In this document: one piece after another, positions 1-5,694 of the stretch
How the letters are laid out: every line of letters starts with the position of its first letter
How positions within the stretch are numbered: the stretch's first letter is position 1
Source of the DNA: a virus
Lineage: Duplodnaviria > Heunggongvirae > Uroviricota > Caudoviricetes
Reading direction: 5' to 3' (one strand)
DNA length: 5,694 nt
IMG/VR virus record: IMGVR_UViG_3300018485_000013
Coordinates: 1-5,694 of that record
The notes under the pieces: model-generated
Seen by the model: only the letters and a program-made list of their open reading frames with translations
Told to the model about the DNA's origin: nothing
Database searches by the model: none
Made by a program: the position numbers and the translations under genes

Positions 1-21
1 TACACGACGCTCTTCCGATCT
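1..21. other. Illumina TruSeq universal adapter 3' end (sequencing artefact, not biological sequence)
   Basis: Bases 1-21 (TACACGACGCTCTTCCGATCT) are identical to the last 21 nt of the TruSeq universal adapter as I recall it (...CTACACGACGCTCTTCCGATCT). They sit at the extreme 5' edge of the window. Confidence 0.85.
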
Positions 22-657
22 GGGATGCTGATCTGGCCCGACTTTACTGGCTGGGACACGGTGCTGAATGCCGAAGCAACGGCATATGCCACCGCCCGTG
101 CGCTTGGTCTGCGCGCCAAAATTGATGAGCAGACCGGATGGCACAAAAGCCTGTCCAACGTGGGCGTGAACGGTGTCACCGGAATTTCTGCTGATGTATT
201 CTGGGATCTGCAGGACCCGGCAACTGATGCGGGACTGCTTAACCAGAACGATGTTACCACACTTATCCGCAAAGACGGCTTTCGCTTCTGGGGTTCCCGC
301 TGTCTGAGTGATGACCCACTCTTTGCCTTTGAAAACTACACCCGCACGGCGCAGGTGCTGATGGACACGATGGCAGAAGCGCCAATGTGGGCGGTCGACA
401 AACCGCTGAATCCGTCGCTGGCCCGCGACATTATCGAAGGTATCCGCGCCAAAATGCGCAGCCTGATCAGTCAGGGCTATCTCATTGGTGGCGATTGCTG
501 GCTGGATGAGTCGGTGAACGACAAAGACACTCTGAAAGCTGGAAAACTCACCATCGACTACGACTACACACCAGTGCCGCCACTTGAAAACCTGATGCTG
601 CGTCAGCGCATCACCGATCAGTACCTGGTGAATTTCGCCAGCCAGGTCAGCGCGTAA
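1..657 (+). CDS. FI: Contractile tail sheath protein, P2 gpFI-like, C-terminal portion (5' partial, runs off the window start)
   Basis: Frame 1 is open from position 1 to the TAA at 655-657, so the first in-window ATG (25) is not the real start. The first 21 nt are adapter, so genuine coding sequence begins at about 22. The translated sequence (…[36 protein letters not shown]…) matches my recall of the P2 sheath C-terminal domain. The tail tube gene follows immediately, as in P2. Confidence 0.88.
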
Positions 658-666
658 GGGGACAAC

Positions 667-1182
667 ATGGCTTTACCACGCAAATTAAAACACCTGAACC
701 TGTTTAACGACGGGAACAACTGGCAGGGGATCGTTGAGTCGCTGACGCTGCCGAAATTCACCCGCAAATATGAGAAGTATCGCGGCGGCGGAATGCCGGG
801 AGCAGTGGATGTGGATCTGGGGCTTGATGACAGTGCGCTGGACACAGAATTTTCCATTGGTGGTACTGAACTGCTGCTGTTTAAGCAGATGGGCAAAGCC
901 ACGGTGGATGGCATCCAGTTGCGCTTTACCGGCTCTATCCAGCGTGATGATACCGGGGAAGTGCAGGCCGTGGAGCTTGTGGTGCGTGGACGTCACAAAG
1001 AAGTGGATTCCGGCGAGTGGAAGACGGGCGAAAGCAACACCACCAAAGTGACCAGTACCAACAGCTACGCGAAGCTGACTATCAATGGTGAGGTGCTCTA
1101 TGAAGTGGACCTTATCAACATGGTGGAAATTGTGGACGGTGTGGACCTGATGGAAGCGCACCGCAACGCCCTCGGCCTCTGA
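667..1182 (+). CDS. FII: Major tail tube protein, P2 gpFII-like
   Basis: 171-aa ORF beginning MALPRKLKHLNLFNDGNNWQGIVE…, which I recognise as the P2 FII tail tube family. A GGGGA Shine-Dalgarno at 658-662 lies 4 nt upstream of the ATG. It starts 9 nt after the sheath stop. Confidence 0.92.
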   Translation: MALPRKLKHLNLFNDGNNWQGIVESLTLPKFTRKYEKYRGGGMPGAVDVDLGLDDSALDTEFSIGGTELLLFKQMGKATVDGIQLRFTGSIQRDDTGEVQAVELVVRGRHKEVDSGEWKTGESNTTKVTSTNSYAKLTINGEVLYEVDLINMVEIVDGVDLMEAHRNALGL

Positions 1183-1193
1183 TGTATCTGAAC

Positions 1194-1211
1194 GGCGCGG
1201 AATGCCGCGCC
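1194..1211 (+). promoter_or_regulatory. GC-rich stem-loop in the FII-E intergenic region (possible mRNA stability element or partial attenuator)
   Basis: Seen in sequence: GGCGCGG (1194-1200) pairs with CCGCGCC (1205-1211) around a 4-nt loop AATG. There is no U-run after it (AGAACCUAAUUUACAGG), so it is not a canonical intrinsic terminator. Confidence 0.35.
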
Positions 1212-1236
1212 AGAACCTAATTTACAGGACAGCAAA

Positions 1237-1539
1237 ATGAGCGATAAGCAGACTGAAAAGACTATTCAACTGGATACCCCCATCATGCGTGGTAAAACTG
1301 AAATCACCGAAATTGTGCTGCGTAAACCGCAGTCTGGTGCGCTGCGCGGTACACGCCTGCAGGCCATTATGGATATGGATGTGAACGCGATGATGACCGT
1401 GATCCCCCGCATCTCCAGCCCGGCGCTGACTGCACAGGAAATTGCAGAGATGGACCCGGCAGATCTCACTGCCATGTCGGTTGAGGTTGTCACTTTTTTG
1501 TTGAAGAAGTCGGTGCTTGCCGGTTTACCGACAGCCTGA
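1237..1539 (+). CDS. E: Tail assembly chaperone, P2 gpE-like (zero-frame product)
   Basis: 100-aa ORF (MSDKQTEKTIQLDTPIMRGK…) in the position upstream of the tape measure gene where the lambda G/GT and P2 E/E' chaperone sits. AGGA at 1226-1229 lies 7 nt upstream of the ATG. A slippery heptamer occurs near its 3' end. Confidence 0.85.
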   Translation: MSDKQTEKTIQLDTPIMRGKTEITEIVLRKPQSGALRGTRLQAIMDMDVNAMMTVIPRISSPALTAQEIAEMDPADLTAMSVEVVTFLLKKSVLAGLPTA

Positions 1540-1673
1540 CGGTTGATGATCTGGTGGCAGATATCGCCACCATTTTTCACTGGCCGCCATCCGTTACTGA
1601 CGTTATGCCGCTGACCGAAGTGCTGGAATGGCGGTATAAAGCGATTCAGAGAAGCGGGGCCAACGATGAGTGA
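1237..1673 (+). CDS. E+E': Tail assembly chaperone frameshift fusion, P2 gpE+E'-like (-1 shift at 1494-1500)
   Basis: Hand translation of the -1 frame from 1500 gives VEEVGACRFTDSLTVDDLVADIATIFHWPPSVTDVMPLTEVLEWRYKAIQRSGANDE, then stop TGA at 1671-1673, which overlaps the tape measure ATG at 1666. The predicted fusion is about 145 aa. This architecture is conserved in the tail chaperones of long-tailed phages. Confidence 0.68.
1494..1500 (+). promoter_or_regulatory. Putative -1 programmed ribosomal frameshift slippery heptamer T_TTT_TTG
   Basis: In the E frame the codons are ac-T TTT TTG. A -1 slip keeps two U-rich codons paired and then reads GTT GAA GAA…, which stays open for 57 codons to a TGA at 1671-1673. 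A T-rich heptamer at this position is the known E/E' frameshift arrangement in P2-like phages. Confidence 0.7.
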
Positions 1674-4600
1674 TAATAACCTGCGCCTGCAGGTCATTCT
1701 TAATGCGGTTGACAAACTCACCCGCCCATTCCGTGCTGCACAGGCCAGTTCGAAAGAGCTGGCTGGCGCAATCAGAAACTCCCGTGACGCATTAAAGCAA
1801 CTCAATCAGGCGGGTAACAGCCTGGAAAAATTTCGCAAGCTGCAGGCCGATAACAAAAAGTTAGGCGACAGGCTGAACTATGCCAGACAGAAGGCAAATT
1901 TGCTTAGTTCTGAGCTGGAAGCGATGGAACAACCATCACAAAGGCATCTTGTGGCTTTAGGTCGGCAAACGCTGGCAGTCCAACGCCTGGAAGAACAACA
2001 AAAATATTTGCAGAAGCAAACGGCGCTTGTGCGTGCAGAACTGTACCGGGCGGGAATTTCTGCGAAAGATGATGCGGGAGCAACTGCCCGTTTAGCCCGT
2101 GAAACATCACGTTATAACCAGGAACTTTCGAAACAAGAGGCGCGGCTGAAGCGACTGGGGGAAGCTCAGCGCAGGATGAATGCGGCGCGTGCCAGTTATG
2201 CCCGTTCGCTGGAGGTGCGTGATCGTATTGCAGGTGCCGGAGCCACCACCACGGCTGCAGGGCTGGCAATGGGCGCACCAGTGATGGCGGCAGTAAAAAG
2301 CTATACCAGCATGGAAGATGCCATGAAAGGTGTAGCAAAGCAGGTCAATGGTCTGCGTGACGATAATGGCAACCGCACTGCACGTTTTTATGAAATGCAG
2401 GATGCCATCAAGGCTGCCAGCGAACAGTTGCCGATGGAAAACGGTGCGGTGGACTTTGCCGCACTGGTTGAAGGTGGTGCGCGCATGAACGTCGCAAACC
2501 CTGACGACAGCTGGGAAGACCAGAAACGTGACCTGCTGGCCTTCGCCAGTACGGCAGCAAAGGCGGCAACAGCCTTTGAGCTGCCAGCGGATGAACTGTC
2601 AGAAAGTCTGGGGAAAATCGCCCAGCTCTACAAAATTCCCACCCGCAATATTGAACAGCTCGGTGATGCGCTGAACTATCTGGATGATAACGCCATGTCG
2701 AAAGGGGCAGACATCATTGATGTGATGCAACGTCTGGGCGGTGTGGCTGACCGTCTGGATTATCGTAAAGCGGCGGCGCTGGGTTCCACCTTCCTGACAC
2801 TGGGCGCTGCGCCGGAGGTTGCAGCCAGTGCAGCAAACGCGATGGTGCGTGAATTGTCCATTGCCACCATGCAGAGCAAGAGTTTCTTTGAAGGAATGAA
2901 TCTGCTGAAACTCAATCCTGAAGTGATTGAAAAGCAGATGACGAAGGATGCGATGGGAACTATCCAGCGTGTGCTGGAGAAGGTGAACGCACTGCCGCAG
3001 GACAAGCGTCTGTCTGCCATGACCATGATGTTTGGTAAAGAGTTTGGCGATGACGCGGCGAAACTGGCAAACAACCTGCCGGAACTACAGCGCCAGCTAA
3101 AACTGACTGCGGGCAATGATGCGCTCGGTTCCATGCAGAAAGAATCCGACATCAACAAAGACTCACTTTCTGCTCAGTGGTTGCTGGTCAAAACCGGAGC
3201 GCAGAACACCTTCAGCAGCCTGGGCGAAACGCTGCGCCAGCCGCTGATGGATATTCTGTACACGGTGAAAAGCATCAAGGGGGCGTTGCGCCGCTGGGTG
3301 GAAGCTAACCCGGAACTGACAGGCACACTGATGAAAGTAGCGGCTGTTATGGCTGCGGTTACCGTAGGCCTCGGCACCTTAGCGGTGGCGCTGGCTGCAG
3401 TGCTGGGGCCGCTGGCAGTCATCCGTCTGGGATTCTCTGTGCTGGGTATCAAAACGTTACCTTCCGTTACGGCAGCAGTAACACGAACCAGCAGCGCGTT
3501 GTCCTGGTTAGCTGGCGCTCCACTGGCACTGCTGCGACGCGGGCTTGCTTCATCGGGCAACGCAGCGGGTTTACTTACTGCGCCGTTGTCGTCTTTGCGC
3601 CGCACGGCATCACTGACGGGAAATGTCCTGAAAACTGTAGCAGGTGCGCCGGTTGCACTTTTGCAGTCTGGATTATCCGGTTTACGTGCTGTTGCTGTGA
3701 TGTTTATGAATCCTCTGGCGGTACTGCGCGGTGGACTGGCCGCCGCAGGCACGGTGCTGCGAGTACTGGCATCTGGTCCACTGGCGATGCTGCGCGTTGC
3801 CCTGTATGCCGTATCTGGTCTGTTAGGTACTCTGCTCAGTCCGATAGGTCTTGTGGTTACTGCACTGGCGGGCGTGGCGCTGGTTGTGTGGAAATACTGG
3901 CAACCCATCACCGCATTTCTTGGTGGCGTGGTGGAAGGATTCAAAGCGGCGGCAGGTCCCGTCAGTGCAGCATTCGAACCGCTTAAGCCCGTGTTCCAGT
4001 GGATTGGCGATAAAGTACAGGCGCTGTGGGGCTGGTTTACTGATCTGCTGACGCCCATTAAGTCGACCTCTGCCGAACTGCAGAGTGCAGCGGCAATGGG
4101 GCGGAGATTCGGGGAGGCACTGGCGGAAGGGCTGAATATGGTCATGCATCCGCTGGACTCCCTGAAATCCGGCGTTTCCTGGTTGCTGGAGAAGCTCGGC
4201 ATTGTCAGTAAAGAGGCCGCAAAGGCAAAACTGCCGGAAAGCGTGACGCGTCAGCAACCTGCGACGGTGAATGCAGACGGTAAAGTGATGATTCCATCGG
4301 GTGGTTTTCCGTCATGGGGATATGGCTTTGCGGGGATGTATGACAGCGGCGGGTATATCCCGCGCGGGCAGTTTGGCATCGTCGGTGAAAACGGGCCGGA
4401 AATTGTTAACGGCCCGGCAAATGTGGCCAGCCGGAGAAATACAGCTGCACTGGCTGCCGTTGTTGCCGGAATGATGGGCGTTGCTGCCGCGCCAGCAGAG
4501 CTTCCACCGTTGCACCCTTTGGCACTTCCCGCGAAAGGTGGAGAAGCAATTGTGAGTCGCGCAGCCACTGTGCCGCTCGTTCAACGGCTTGAGGCACCGA

Positions 4601-4743
4601 CGCAGATCATCATTCAGACGCAGCCAGGACAAAGTGCGCAGGATATTGCGCGGGAGGTGGCCCGCCAGCTTGATGAACGTGAACGCAGGCTGAAGGCAAA
4701 GGCCAGGAGTAACTACAGCGATCAGGGGGGATACGACGCATGA
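1666..4743 (+). CDS. T: Tail tape measure protein, P2 gpT-like, 1025 aa
   Basis: Very large ORF directly after E/E'. It has a charged, heptad-like N-terminal region (residues about 25-180, rich in Q/R/E/L/A, consistent with coiled coil), a hydrophobic Ala/Gly/Leu/Val-rich central region with degenerate tandem repeats, and a Gly-rich C-terminal region. The first ATG after the in-frame stop at 1612 is at 1666. GGGG at 1655-1658 is a plausible Shine-Dalgarno. Confidence 0.93.
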   Translation: MSDNNLRLQVILNAVDKLTRPFRAAQASSKELAGAIRNSRDALKQLNQAGNSLEKFRKLQADNKKLGDRLNYARQKANLLSSELEAMEQPSQRHLVALGRQTLAVQRLEEQQKYLQKQTALVRAELYRAGISAKDDAGATARLARETSRYNQELSKQEARLKRLGEAQRRMNAARASYARSLEVRDRIAGAGATTTAAGLAMGAPVMAAVKSYTSMEDAMKGVAKQVNGLRDDNGNRTARFYEMQDAIKAASEQLPMENGAVDFAALVEGGARMNVANPDDSWEDQKRDLLAFASTAAKAATAFELPADELSESLGKIAQLYKIPTRNIEQLGDALNYLDDNAMSKGADIIDVMQRLGGVADRLDYRKAAALGSTFLTLGAAPEVAASAANAMVRELSIATMQSKSFFEGMNLLKLNPEVIEKQMTKDAMGTIQRVLEKVNALPQDKRLSAMTMMFGKEFGDDAAKLANNLPELQRQLKLTAGNDALGSMQKESDINKDSLSAQWLLVKTGAQNTFSSLGETLRQPLMDILYTVKSIKGALRRWVEANPELTGTLMKVAAVMAAVTVGLGTLAVALAAVLGPLAVIRLGFSVLGIKTLPSVTAAVTRTSSALSWLAGAPLALLRRGLASSGNAAGLLTAPLSSLRRTASLTGNVLKTVAGAPVALLQSGLSGLRAVAVMFMNPLAVLRGGLAAAGTVLRVLASGPLAMLRVALYAVSGLLGTLLSPIGLVVTALAGVALVVWKYWQPITAFLGGVVEGFKAAAGPVSAAFEPLKPVFQWIGDKVQALWGWFTDLLTPIKSTSAELQSAAAMGRRFGEALAEGLNMVMHPLDSLKSGVSWLLEKLGIVSKEAAKAKLPESVTRQQPATVNADGKVMIPSGGFPSWGYGFAGMYDSGGYIPRGQFGIVGENGPEIVNGPANVASRRNTAALAAVVAGMMGVAAAPAELPPLHPLALPAKGGEAIVSRAATVPLVQRLEAPTQIIIQTQPGQSAQDIAREVARQLDERERRLKAKARSNYSDQGGYDA
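3505..3890 (+). repeat. Degenerate tandem repeats of about 21-22 aa (about 63-66 nt) within the tape measure gene
   Basis: The protein shows about six consecutive units with the pattern xxPLAxLRxGLxxxGxxL: LAGAPLALLRRGLASSGNAAGLL / TAPLSSLRRTASLTGNVLKTV / AGAPVALLQSGLSGLRAVAVMFM / NPLAVLRGGLAAAGTVLRVLA / SGPLAMLRVALYAVSGLLGTLL / SPIGLVVTALAGVALVVW. The nucleotide copies are diverged (for example CCACTGGCACTGCTGCGACGCGGGCTT versus CCTCTGGCGGTACTGCGCGGTGGACTG), so the boundaries are approximate. Confidence 0.5.
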
Positions 4744-5225
4744 TGATGGTGCTGGGATTGTACGTGTTTATGCTTCGCACTGTGCCGTATCAGGAACTGC
4801 AGTATCAACGCAGCTGGCGACATGCGGCAAACAGCCGGGTAAACCGTCGTCCGTCCACGCAGTTTCTGGGACCGGAAAACGACATGCTGACGCTTTCCGG
4901 TGTTCTTATGCCGGAGATAACAGGCGGCAGGCTGTCGTTGCTGGCACTGGAGCAGATGGCAGAACAGGGGAAAGCATGGCCCCTGATTGAAGGCAGCGGC
5001 ACGATTTACGGCATGTATGTGATTGAGGGACTGAATCAGACTAAAACGGAGTTTTTCCGCGACGGTATGCCGCGCAGGATTGAGTTCACCCTTTCGCTAA
5101 AACGGGTGGATGAATCCCTGTCCGATATGTTCGGTGATCTCAGTACTCAACTGAATAATCTGCAGGACACGGCAACGTCTGTCTTAAGCGATATCAGTAA
5201 AACGGTGGGAGGGCTGCTGTCGTGA
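4740..5225 (+). CDS. U: Tail protein U, P2 gpU-like
   Basis: 161-aa ORF (MMMVLGLYVFMLRTVPYQELQYQRSWRHAANSRVNRRP…) that I recognise as the phage P2 GpU family. Its ATG overlaps the tape measure stop in ATGA (4740-4743). AGGGGGGA at 4722-4729 is a Shine-Dalgarno. Position after T matches P2 order. Confidence 0.9.
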   Translation: MMMVLGLYVFMLRTVPYQELQYQRSWRHAANSRVNRRPSTQFLGPENDMLTLSGVLMPEITGGRLSLLALEQMAEQGKAWPLIEGSGTIYGMYVIEGLNQTKTEFFRDGMPRRIEFTLSLKRVDESLSDMFGDLSTQLNNLQDTATSVLSDISKTVGGLLS

Positions 5226-5694
5226 ATTTCAGCTCTGAACTGCTTAACAAAGGCAACAAAACTCCCGCATTCAGCATCAGTATTGAGGGCAGGGATATCA
5301 CCACTGTGCTGGATAACCGCCTGATGAGTTTGACGCTGACGGATAACCGGGGCTTTGAAGCGGACCAGCTTGATCTGGAGCTGGATGACGCTGACGGAAA
5401 AATCGTGCTGCCGCGCCGTGGTGCGGTTATTACGCTGGCGCTGGGCTGGAAGGGGCAGCCGCTTTTCCCGAAAGGGGCATTCACAGTGGACGAGATTGAA
5501 CACACTGGCGCACCGGACCGCCTGACTATCCGGGCGCGAAGTGCTGATTTTCGGGAAACGCTGAATACCCGCCGTGAAAAATCGTGGCATAAGACCACCG
5601 TCGGGGAAGTGGTGAAGGAAATAGCCGCGCGGCACAAGCTGAAGATGGCACTGGGTAAAGACCTGTCGGATAAGCCCGTGGAGCATATAGACCA
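5222..5694 (+). CDS. D: Tail protein D, P2 gpD-like (late control D family), N-terminal portion (3' partial, runs off the window end)
   Basis: Frame 2 is open from the TAA at 5198-5200 to the window end. It is absent from the supplied ORF track, probably because it has no ATG start and no stop within the window. The only plausible start is GTG at 5222, overlapping the U stop in GTGA, with GGGAGGG at 5207-5213 eight nt upstream. Translation (V/M)NFSSELLNKGNKTPAFSISIEGRDITTVLDNRLMSLTLTDNRGFEADQLDLELDDADGKIVLPRRGAVITLALGWKGQPLF… matches my recall of the gpD family. Confidence 0.82.
   Translation, partial: MNFSSELLNKGNKTPAFSISIEGRDITTVLDNRLMSLTLTDNRGFEADQLDLELDDADGKIVLPRRGAVITLALGWKGQPLFPKGAFTVDEIEHTGAPDRLTIRARSADFRETLNTRREKSWHKTTVGEVVKEIAARHKLKMALGKDLSDKPVEHID

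Follow-up and report, generated by a model that had tools for sequence, protein, structure and literature searches.

The TMP (tape measure protein) encoded in the window, that is, the whole stretch of 5,694 nucleotides (nt) analyzed here (IMG/VR virus record IMGVR_UViG_3300018485_000013, positions 1 to 5,694), contains an array of six tandem units of 21 or 22 residues, each opening with a small residue followed by proline. To judge from the sequence, the array is a true tandem duplication of homologous helical units, ancient and by now degenerate. We consider it probable on balance that it constitutes an old tandem array within the hydrophobic (membrane) module of a P2-family TMP, acting as part of the ruler in the tail lumen and becoming membrane active after ejection. 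Tail length is determined by TMPs, which in several phages also make up the conduit for DNA across the inner membrane or seed it, and the build and evolution of their hydrophobic module are poorly described for contractile-tailed phages.

By its matches, the 1025-residue open reading frame (ORF; nt 1666-4743, plus strand) is a TMP with a TP901 family core and the orthologue of P2 gpT. It matched PF10145 with 66.5 bits (cut-off, 33.2) over residues 246-457, TIGR01760 with 306.7 bits (cut-off, 28.8) over residues 200-567, and phrog_28 over residues 1-1024 (E value of 5e-194). The TMP of the Salmonella phage RE-2010 showed 75% identity in a full-length alignment, and the gpT proteins of P2 and PSP3 showed 29% identity from end to end, with invariant columns from M1 to R1014. 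These matches, together with the P2 gene order described below, bear out the initial annotation of the ORF as a TMP.

Six tandem units in the hydrophobic module

The array proper covers residues 618-745 of the TMP (nt 3517-3900; the array units and the other TMP segments described here all lie on the plus strand). The initial annotation had placed six degenerate tandem units with a period of about 21 to 22 residues at nt 3505-3890, corresponding to residues 614-742; the repeats proved real and the region was the right one, its limits being about 10 nt off at each end. The units start at residues 618, 639, 661, 682, 704 and 725, with prolines at residues 619, 640, 662, 683, 705 and 726, giving a proline spacing of 21-22-21-22-21 and unit lengths of 21, 22, 21, 22, 21 and 21 residues.

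Unit 1 (APLALLRRGLASSGNAAGLLT; residues 618-638, 21 residues, nt 3517-3579) and unit 2 (APLSSLRRTASLTGNVLKTVAG; residues 639-660, 22 residues, nt 3580-3645) are amphipathic, with net charges of +2 and +3, and scored 10.4 and 13.5 bits, respectively, against a hidden Markov model (HMM) of the unit. Unit 3 (APVALLQSGLSGLRAVAVMFM; residues 661-681, 21 residues, nt 3646-3708) coincides with a predicted helix at residues 661-681, and unit 4 (NPLAVLRGGLAAAGTVLRVLAS; residues 682-703, 22 residues, nt 3709-3774) gave an HMM score of 17.9 bits. Unit 5 (GPLAMLRVALYAVSGLLGTLL; residues 704-724, 21 residues, nt 3775-3837; 13.0 bits) and unit 6 (SPIGLVVTALAGVALVVWKYW; residues 725-745, 21 residues, nt 3838-3900), the anchor unit, are both of transmembrane-grade hydrophobicity. 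Two degenerate units precede the array. The first (GPLAVIRLGFSVLGIKT; residues 581-597) lies inside the first hydrophobic block and matched the HMM weakly at residues 581-594, and the second, of 20 residues (LPSVTAAVTRTSSALSWLAG; residues 598-617, nt 3457-3516), opens with xP, matches the HMM weakly in its C-terminal part, and is conserved in RE-2010-type and six-unit homologues. After the array comes a conserved helical region (residues 746-860, nt 3901-4245) that aligns with P2 gpT.

The periodicity was well above chance expectation. BLOSUM62 autocorrelation over residues 614-741 gave z values of 7.5 at lag 43, 4.0 at lag 21 and 2.5 at lag 22, and in 2000 composition-preserving shuffles the lag-43 maximum was never reached. 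When units 1-2 were locally aligned with units 3-4, the score was 64, against 25.6 +/- 5.1 for shuffled sequences (0 of 1000; z of ~7.5). The unit HMM, of 21 columns and trained on units of distant homologues, found seven in-register matches within residues 581-724 (~64 bits summed) and two weak, negative-scoring matches elsewhere in the TMP, whereas 300 shuffles of the same composition reached a maximum of 10 bits. A consensus of xPLALLRxGLxGxGxVLxxLx was derived from 24 distinct six-unit arrays, in which conservation was as follows: Pro2 (100%), Arg7 (81%), Leu6 (76%), Leu3 (74%), Leu10 (64%) and Gly14 (49%); the positions shared between units were Pro2, Leu3, Leu6, Arg7, Gly9, Leu10 and Gly14. 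The 21-22-21-22-21 proline spacing was exact in all 24 arrays.

At the DNA level, no tandem repeat was detected at the array by Tandem Repeats Finder (score of at least 30), and the only similarity consisted of 35-nt stretches with 63-74% identity at three unit starts. The absence of a DNA-level repeat indicates that the duplication is ancient. Similarity between units was 12-36 BLOSUM units, compared with 66-83 for one unit across species. Odd and even unit classes, which would be expected of a clean duplication of a 43-residue double unit, were rejected, as the between-unit similarity matrix showed no crisp classes. Searches of Pfam, NCBIfam and PHROGs for a named family covering the array returned only whole-TMP families or unannotated PHROGs, and a phmmer search of the PDB gave no related solved structure at an E value of 1 or below, apart from one chance match (0.25).

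A length of 21 to 22 residues is typical of transmembrane helices, and the same pattern could have arisen by convergence, from independent membrane-length helices split by proline or glycine turns, with no duplication of an ancestral unit. The lack of a surviving DNA-level repeat and the modest between-unit similarity (12-36 versus 66-83 BLOSUM units) would both suit such an origin. It nevertheless seems to us very improbable, because the motif is fixed in position beyond what hydrophobicity demands, because units 1-2 and 3-4 align at a z of ~7.5, and because homologues carry or lack the sequence in whole units or 43-residue pairs.

An AlphaFold2 monomer model was built from a 42-sequence alignment; its mean predicted local distance difference test (pLDDT) score was 56, and its secondary structure alone was used. 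The region was predicted to be all-helical, with helices at residues 638-659, 661-681, 683-702, 705-723 and 726-743, each ending at the xP of units 2-6 and beyond, while the helix predicted at residues 599-628 runs through Pro 619. The pLDDT was ~40 across the array and 61-80 over residues 710-799. The hydrophobicity spectrum of residues 548-763 showed one dominant period of 3.58, with a power of 115 against a shuffle maximum of 38.7 +/- 8.4 (0 of 300); the corresponding period of the N-terminal 200 residues was 3.48. Since 43/12 equals 3.58, the 43-residue double period would amount to 12 turns and one unit to six, and each unit is predicted to be one six-turn alpha-helix. The 21/22 alternation thus appears to hold a single leucine-rich stripe in phase across all units, over ~200 residues. 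Compared with the heptad period of a canonical left-handed coiled coil (3.5), the module period is 3.58; the 7- and 14-residue indels found in homologues respect heptads, and a proline every 21-22 residues interrupts the helices.

Transmembrane-grade hydrophobicity, defined as a Kyte-Doolittle 19-residue mean above 1.6, was found only at the ends of the module, at residues 554-596 and residues 704-745 (units 5-6), the threshold being passed in the second block at residues 706-745. The first block (residues 554-597, nt 3325-3456) is present in all homologues, and the threshold was exceeded by windows starting at residues 554-578, in agreement with the strongly hydrophobic stretch that had been annotated at nt 3329-3450 (residues 555-595). 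The two-block pattern is conserved in homologues and has the hydrophobicity of a TMP membrane region. The description of the repeats themselves as hydrophobic holds for units 5 and 6, which are of transmembrane grade, but not for units 1-4, which are only moderately hydrophobic (Kyte-Doolittle means of 0.26-1.41), amphipathic and cationic (net charge of +1 to +3). The region is rich in alanine (18.5%), leucine (19.4%), valine (12.5%) and glycine (11.6%), and the 194-residue module contains no Asp or Glu and 14 Lys plus Arg.

Copy number among homologues and the proposed role of the array

The comparison of the array drew on 80 loci found in genomes of species representatives, on 80 viral contigs and on 150 proteins representing 5458 homologues. 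Copy numbers were read from these genomic and viral loci and from the set of representatives; the first homologue search had given mostly fragments or fusions of less than 460 residues. Copy number did differ among homologues, and it did so in whole units. The 116 full-length anchored homologues had in-register counts of one (71 proteins), two (19), three (2), four (7) or six (17) units, forming a nested series in register with the conserved WKYW anchor. Unit 6 alone occurs in P2, units 5-6 in RE-2010, units 4-6 in locus L037, units 3-6 in L032 and the Pectobacterium/Brenneria type, and units 1-6 in the window type; unit 1 is absent from RE-2010, L032 and L035-type homologues.

The anchor distance, measured from W544 of WVxxN to K743 of KYW, varied over a wide range: 87 residues in P2, PSP3 and many others, 94 in L047, 103 in L043, 107 in Xanthomonas loci, 113 in the RE-2010 type, 119 in L037, 127 in L022, 163 in the L035 type, 192 in L033, 199 in the window TMP and 228-231 in the L013 type. 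The RE-2010 TMP is shorter than the window TMP by exactly 86 residues, or 2 x 43. Other indels of the module measured 7 or 14 residues, namely, a loss of 7 residues in unit 3 of L033, a 14-residue remnant in L022 and a 7-residue difference between L047 and L046. Changes in module length occurred with no compensation elsewhere in the protein. The number of Lys plus Arg residues in the module climbed with the number of units (2, 7, 11, 14 and 17), and acidic residues were absent outside the variants with an acidic insert.

In these variants (L013-L016, L020, L023 and L161-L163), an acidic insert of 77-80 residues with a DDDD-type run replaces the middle units (TMP residues ~615-695) and is flanked by the two hydrophobic blocks, a soluble domain thus taking the place of the cationic helices. 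A further group of TMPs, of 1147 residues (L011, L018, L026 and L150-L159), has the identical six-unit count and ~122 extra residues after the WKYW anchor.

Among the 80 related viral contigs, 72 had six units with identical proline spacing, 5 had the same length with one proline or anchor residue lost, and 3 were of the acidic-insert type. A rapidly variable, contingency-type DNA repeat was accordingly rejected, given the lack of any repeat detectable by Tandem Repeats Finder and the identical spacing in these 72 contigs. Likewise, 994 of the 1017 complete Escherichia coli genomes carrying the region were intact across it. The absence of a DNA-level repeat and the spacing kept in related viral contigs show that units were gained or lost long ago, between lineages. 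The rate at which the array evolves is close to the protein-wide rate, with 69-77% identity in relatives whose N-terminal part shows 71-75%; in relatives with the array at 69-77%, residues 746-860 are the best conserved part of the TMP (86-93%). A Pantoea locus (L030) is a mosaic in which the N-terminal 547 residues are 26% identical, the array 58% and the post-array region 80%.

On the reading that we favor, the module would have started in the form seen in P2, with a single unit and 82 residues that are hydrophobic throughout, and would have reached ~194 residues through the insertion of cationic amphipathic helices between the two transmembrane-grade blocks (residues 554-596 and 704-745). 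Units would be gained or lost whole or in pairs, with selection acting on the exact length, the proline start, the leucine stripe and the flanking arginines. During assembly, the gpE and E+E' chaperones would keep the module soluble, and it would then lie in the tube lumen as an extended multi-chain helical bundle, where it would count toward the ruler at ~3.2 nm per unit (~1.5 A per helical residue), so that the 86 extra residues over RE-2010 would add ~13 nm. Upon sheath contraction the TMP would be expelled, its two strongly hydrophobic blocks would insert into the inner membrane, and the arginine-bearing amphipathic units would lie at the membrane interface or line the DNA conduit. The array thus probably has both a ruler role and a membrane role, by analogy with characterized TMPs. 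We infer the effect on tail length from the uncompensated changes in module length and from the deletion results obtained with TP901-1 (see below).

Several points weigh against this reading. Units 1-4 lie below the hydrophobicity of classical transmembrane helices, and the acidic insert of some relatives implies that the middle of the module need not be membrane embedded. At a pLDDT of ~40, the packing may be either extended or hairpin, and the figure in nanometers per unit would change with it. One unit (~32 A if helical) is unlike the rise of a tube ring, and array growth would therefore not proceed in whole-ring steps of the tail. No tail length, structure or membrane assay was found for any member of the array lineage, and a literature search gave no electron microscopy of a phage with this TMP and no tail lengths for RE-2010, for Fels-2 or for the Klebsiella phages; the only tail figure retrieved was that of P2 (135 x 18 nm).

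The first of these points would also suit an array serving as a pure spacer, that is, as extra coiled-coil-like ruler length with no part in membrane insertion or DNA passage. An in-phase, heptad-like stripe with indels of 7, 14 or 43 residues is what a helical bundle would show, a soluble acidic insert occupies the equivalent place in some relatives, and tail length in TP901-1 is set by TMP length. A spacer, however, would have no need of the strict composition, free of acidic residues and with Arg7 and Pro2 conserved, that is kept in homologues down to 41% identity (best tblastn segment). The array is also placed between two transmembrane-grade blocks, and length varies independently in other regions of the TMP. 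For these reasons we regard a pure spacer as unlikely, and it is in part compatible with the combined ruler and membrane role preferred here.

A bolder version of that combined role would make the module a tunable pore and ruler: the 21/22 alternation would produce an untwisted multi-chain rod fitting the lumen, which would refold into a many-helix cationic conduit, and the number of units would set both tail length and the number of conduit helices. This proposal is decidedly doubtful. An arms race with the superinfection-exclusion proteins directed at TMPs could also have influenced the number of units. Whatever the role, the natural series of 1, 2, 3, 4 and 6 units, with their exact unit lengths, offers a ready experimental ladder.

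Genomic context and deletion remnants

The window corresponds to the tail module of a prophage of the P2-like type (Peduoviridae), and the genes around the TMP gene follow the P2 order: sheath, tube, E/E', T, U and D. The C-terminal part of the sheath protein (nt 25-657; PF04984/PF17482) is followed by the tube protein FII (nt 667-1182; PF04985) and, on the plus strand, by the tail assembly chaperone gpE (nt 1237-1539; PF10109, 66.4 bits). The TMP gene comes next, and then gpU (nt 4740-5225; PF06995) and the start of gpD, which lies 3' of gpU at the window end. The TMP gene thus has the position of its class, after the frameshifted chaperone pair and before the baseplate and hub genes. Among the top matches listed, an E. 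coli record and Klebsiella phage records, nt 22-5694 of the window showed 96.8-97.2% identity. The first 21 nt (TACACGACGCTCTTCCGATCT) had no match in relatives; all matches begin at nt 22, and the E. coli prophage L168 differs upstream. We take this segment to be the 3' end of the Illumina TruSeq adapter/read-1 primer, in which case the contig opens, within the sheath gene, on adapter sequence that was left untrimmed.

Near the end of gpE, a slippery heptamer, T_TTT_TTG, was found at nt 1494-1500, with an open -1 frame (nt 1500-1671) whose TGA stop (nt 1669-1671) overlaps the ATG start of the TMP gene at nt 1666. By comparison with P2 E/E' and the PSP3 annotation, a P2-type -1 frameshift would generate the putative E+E' product (nt 1237-1671, plus strand). 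gpE and E+E' are the likely partners of the hydrophobic module during assembly.

A chaperone gene with a frameshift site immediately upstream of the TMP gene raises the question of whether the array is above all a docking platform, the repeated xPLxxLRxGL being a reiterated binding site for gpE/E+E' and the chaperones coating the module during assembly. A repeated conserved motif suits repeated binding, and the hydrophobic TMP regions of TP901-1 have been proposed as chaperone-binding sites (PMC5099701). P2 and PSP3, however, share the chaperone family and yet have one unit and no PLxxLR motif. We therefore consider docking as the purpose of the array quite improbable; it is, moreover, partly compatible with the ruler and membrane role rather than exclusive of it.

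Opposite the hydrophobic module, the minus strand contains an ORF of 342 codons (nt 3174-4202). It was rejected as a gene: the frame is free of stops in all relatives, but its ends vary, and its sole Pfam match was under the cut-off (17.1 versus 25 bits). Most probably it is a shadow ORF arising from the Ala, Leu, Gly and Val codon composition.

The array is also the site of a recurrent deletion breakpoint in E. coli. Many E. coli proteins of 385-452 residues, some of them named "tolA" or "CII family," turned out to be in-frame fusions of the C-terminal part of the TMP to the N termini of at least six other, upstream prophage genes, with sheath, CII, head completion L, gpV, gpW, baseplate J and invertase as partners. 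The TMP-side junctions, of about 15 types, cluster at residues 713-727; in a position-unbiased representative set, 4 of 13 junctions fell at residues 713-719. The breakpoint was noted in loci L164, L166, L167 and L169-L172, and six remnant loci were mapped against the intact E. coli prophage L168 (CP019275.1). The right deletion endpoints lay within 10 nt of one another, at nt 29420 (with four different left partners), 29422 and 29430 of L168, the left endpoints ranged from nt 2862 to 25447, and microhomology was 0-7 nt. All six mapped remnants shared one chromosomal site, adjoining ybjL.

The breakpoint is the center of an imperfect palindrome, CCATA|TCTGG, homologous to window nt ~3811-3822 in unit 5. 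Neither a Chi site nor a DNA hairpin (z of 0.75) was found there, and the replication gene contains no second copy of the site. Remnants with the breakpoint are rare among complete E. coli genomes, as the count of intact carriers given above indicates. The pattern could be due to breakage with one end fixed or to selection in favor of remnants in which unit 6 and the C-terminal part of the TMP, gpU, gpD and Ogr are preserved. On a more daring and doubtful reading, the position in unit 5 would be a site-specific breakage point that gives rise to such remnants again and again, and remnants with a membrane-anchored C-terminal TMP fragment, gpU, gpD and Ogr could be retained for a host function.

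Nucleotide diversity among 47 distinct 1025-codon TMP genes peaked in unit 4 (nt 3706-3780), at ~0.10 compared with 0.02-0.04 in the flanking windows. Identity to L168 among complete E. coli genomes was mostly 90-95% over the 150 nt left of the breakpoint and mostly at least 99% over the 150 nt right of it. Both observations suggest alternative alleles or a mosaic patch. For its part, the L168 record is labeled as plasmid p13P477T-2 and is also included in the phage collection; it contains a P2-like prophage followed by chromosomal ssrA, smpB, bamE and recN, with many frameshifted coding sequences, and is probably a misassigned chromosomal fragment. In the degraded E. coli prophages L164-L166, a reverse-transcriptase gene of 586-626 residues (RVT_1 only; nt ~1400-3780) lies between DinI-like and portal genes, a typical position for a P2 moron.

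Comparison with known systems

Among the closest known relatives are the gpT proteins of P2 and PSP3 (815 and 814 residues, compared with 1025 for the window TMP). They are encoded by an orthologous gene in an equivalent tail module and share the N-terminal coiled-coil region and the terminal helix anchored at WKYW (unit 6), and the region after the array is homologous as well. They differ in the module itself, which in P2 and PSP3 has an anchor distance of 87 residues, is all hydrophobic and contains one unit with W-P boundaries, whereas that of the window TMP has an anchor distance of 199 residues, six units, 14 Lys or Arg residues and boundaries formed by a small residue and proline. The TMP of RE-2010, a member of Felsduovirus, is much nearer. 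It has the first hydrophobic block, the degenerate units of 17 and 20 residues and units 5 and 6, and lacks exactly the 86 residues that correspond to units 1-4 or to two 43-residue pairs.

Outside phages, exchangeable apolipoproteins such as apoA-I contain proline-punctuated tandem amphipathic helices of ~22 residues that interact with lipids. Their repeats have an 11/3 periodicity (3.67) and patterns of acidic and basic residues, whereas the array has a 43/12 periodicity (3.58), no acidic residues and a narrow leucine stripe. No apolipoprotein family appeared in the Pfam scan of the array; there is no homology, and the likeness is one of analogy only.

Neither the whole protein nor the array alone matched the TMP repeat family PF05017 or any other Pfam repeat family, and a literature search found no proline-punctuated repeat of this type in a TMP. 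In a published survey, myovirus TMPs were mostly without detectable tandem repeats (PMC13585406). The TMP of TP901-1, which shares the TIGR01760/PF10145 core, does combine tandem repeats and predicted transmembrane helices in one protein (PMC5099701). Its repeats recur every 11 or 18 residues, carry Trp or Phe as markers and are found outside its two hydrophobic regions (PMC5099701), whereas in the window TMP the period is 21/22 (43), the marker residues are Pro and Arg, and the repeats fall within the hydrophobic module. In TP901-1, deletion of hydrophobic helices 2-3 cut the tail from 118 to 107.6 nm, and deletions within the repeats also shortened it (PMC5099701).

Long hydrophobic regions with five to seven predicted transmembrane helices are likewise found in diffocin CD1366 and in gp16 of cyanophage Pam3, where the transmembrane region measures 217 residues (PMC10996793). 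Inside the tube, the diffocin TMP adopts over its full length, its five predicted transmembrane helices included, the form of an extended trimeric coiled coil, and it has been proposed to refold into a 15-helix pore (PMC10996793). These proteins have no detectable sequence relation to the window TMP, a regular 21/22 repeat with variable copy number has not been described for them, and, unlike their transmembrane regions, the middle units of the array are amphipathic and not of transmembrane grade. In T4, the transmembrane segment of gp29 stays at the tube end and contributes to the conduit across the inner membrane, and the exclusion protein Imm binds it (bioRxiv 10.64898/2026.03.06.709160), and lambda gpH* forms a trans-envelope channel (PMC12617516). 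The membrane role that had been suggested for the hydrophobic stretch of the window TMP is, by analogy, in agreement with what has been published for T4 gp29, for lambda gpH*, for diffocin and for TP901-1. Tandem repeats and multihelix transmembrane regions of TMPs are both already known, and the array would represent an expanded version of the known TMP membrane module rather than a new system, an incremental gain that refines a known protein class.

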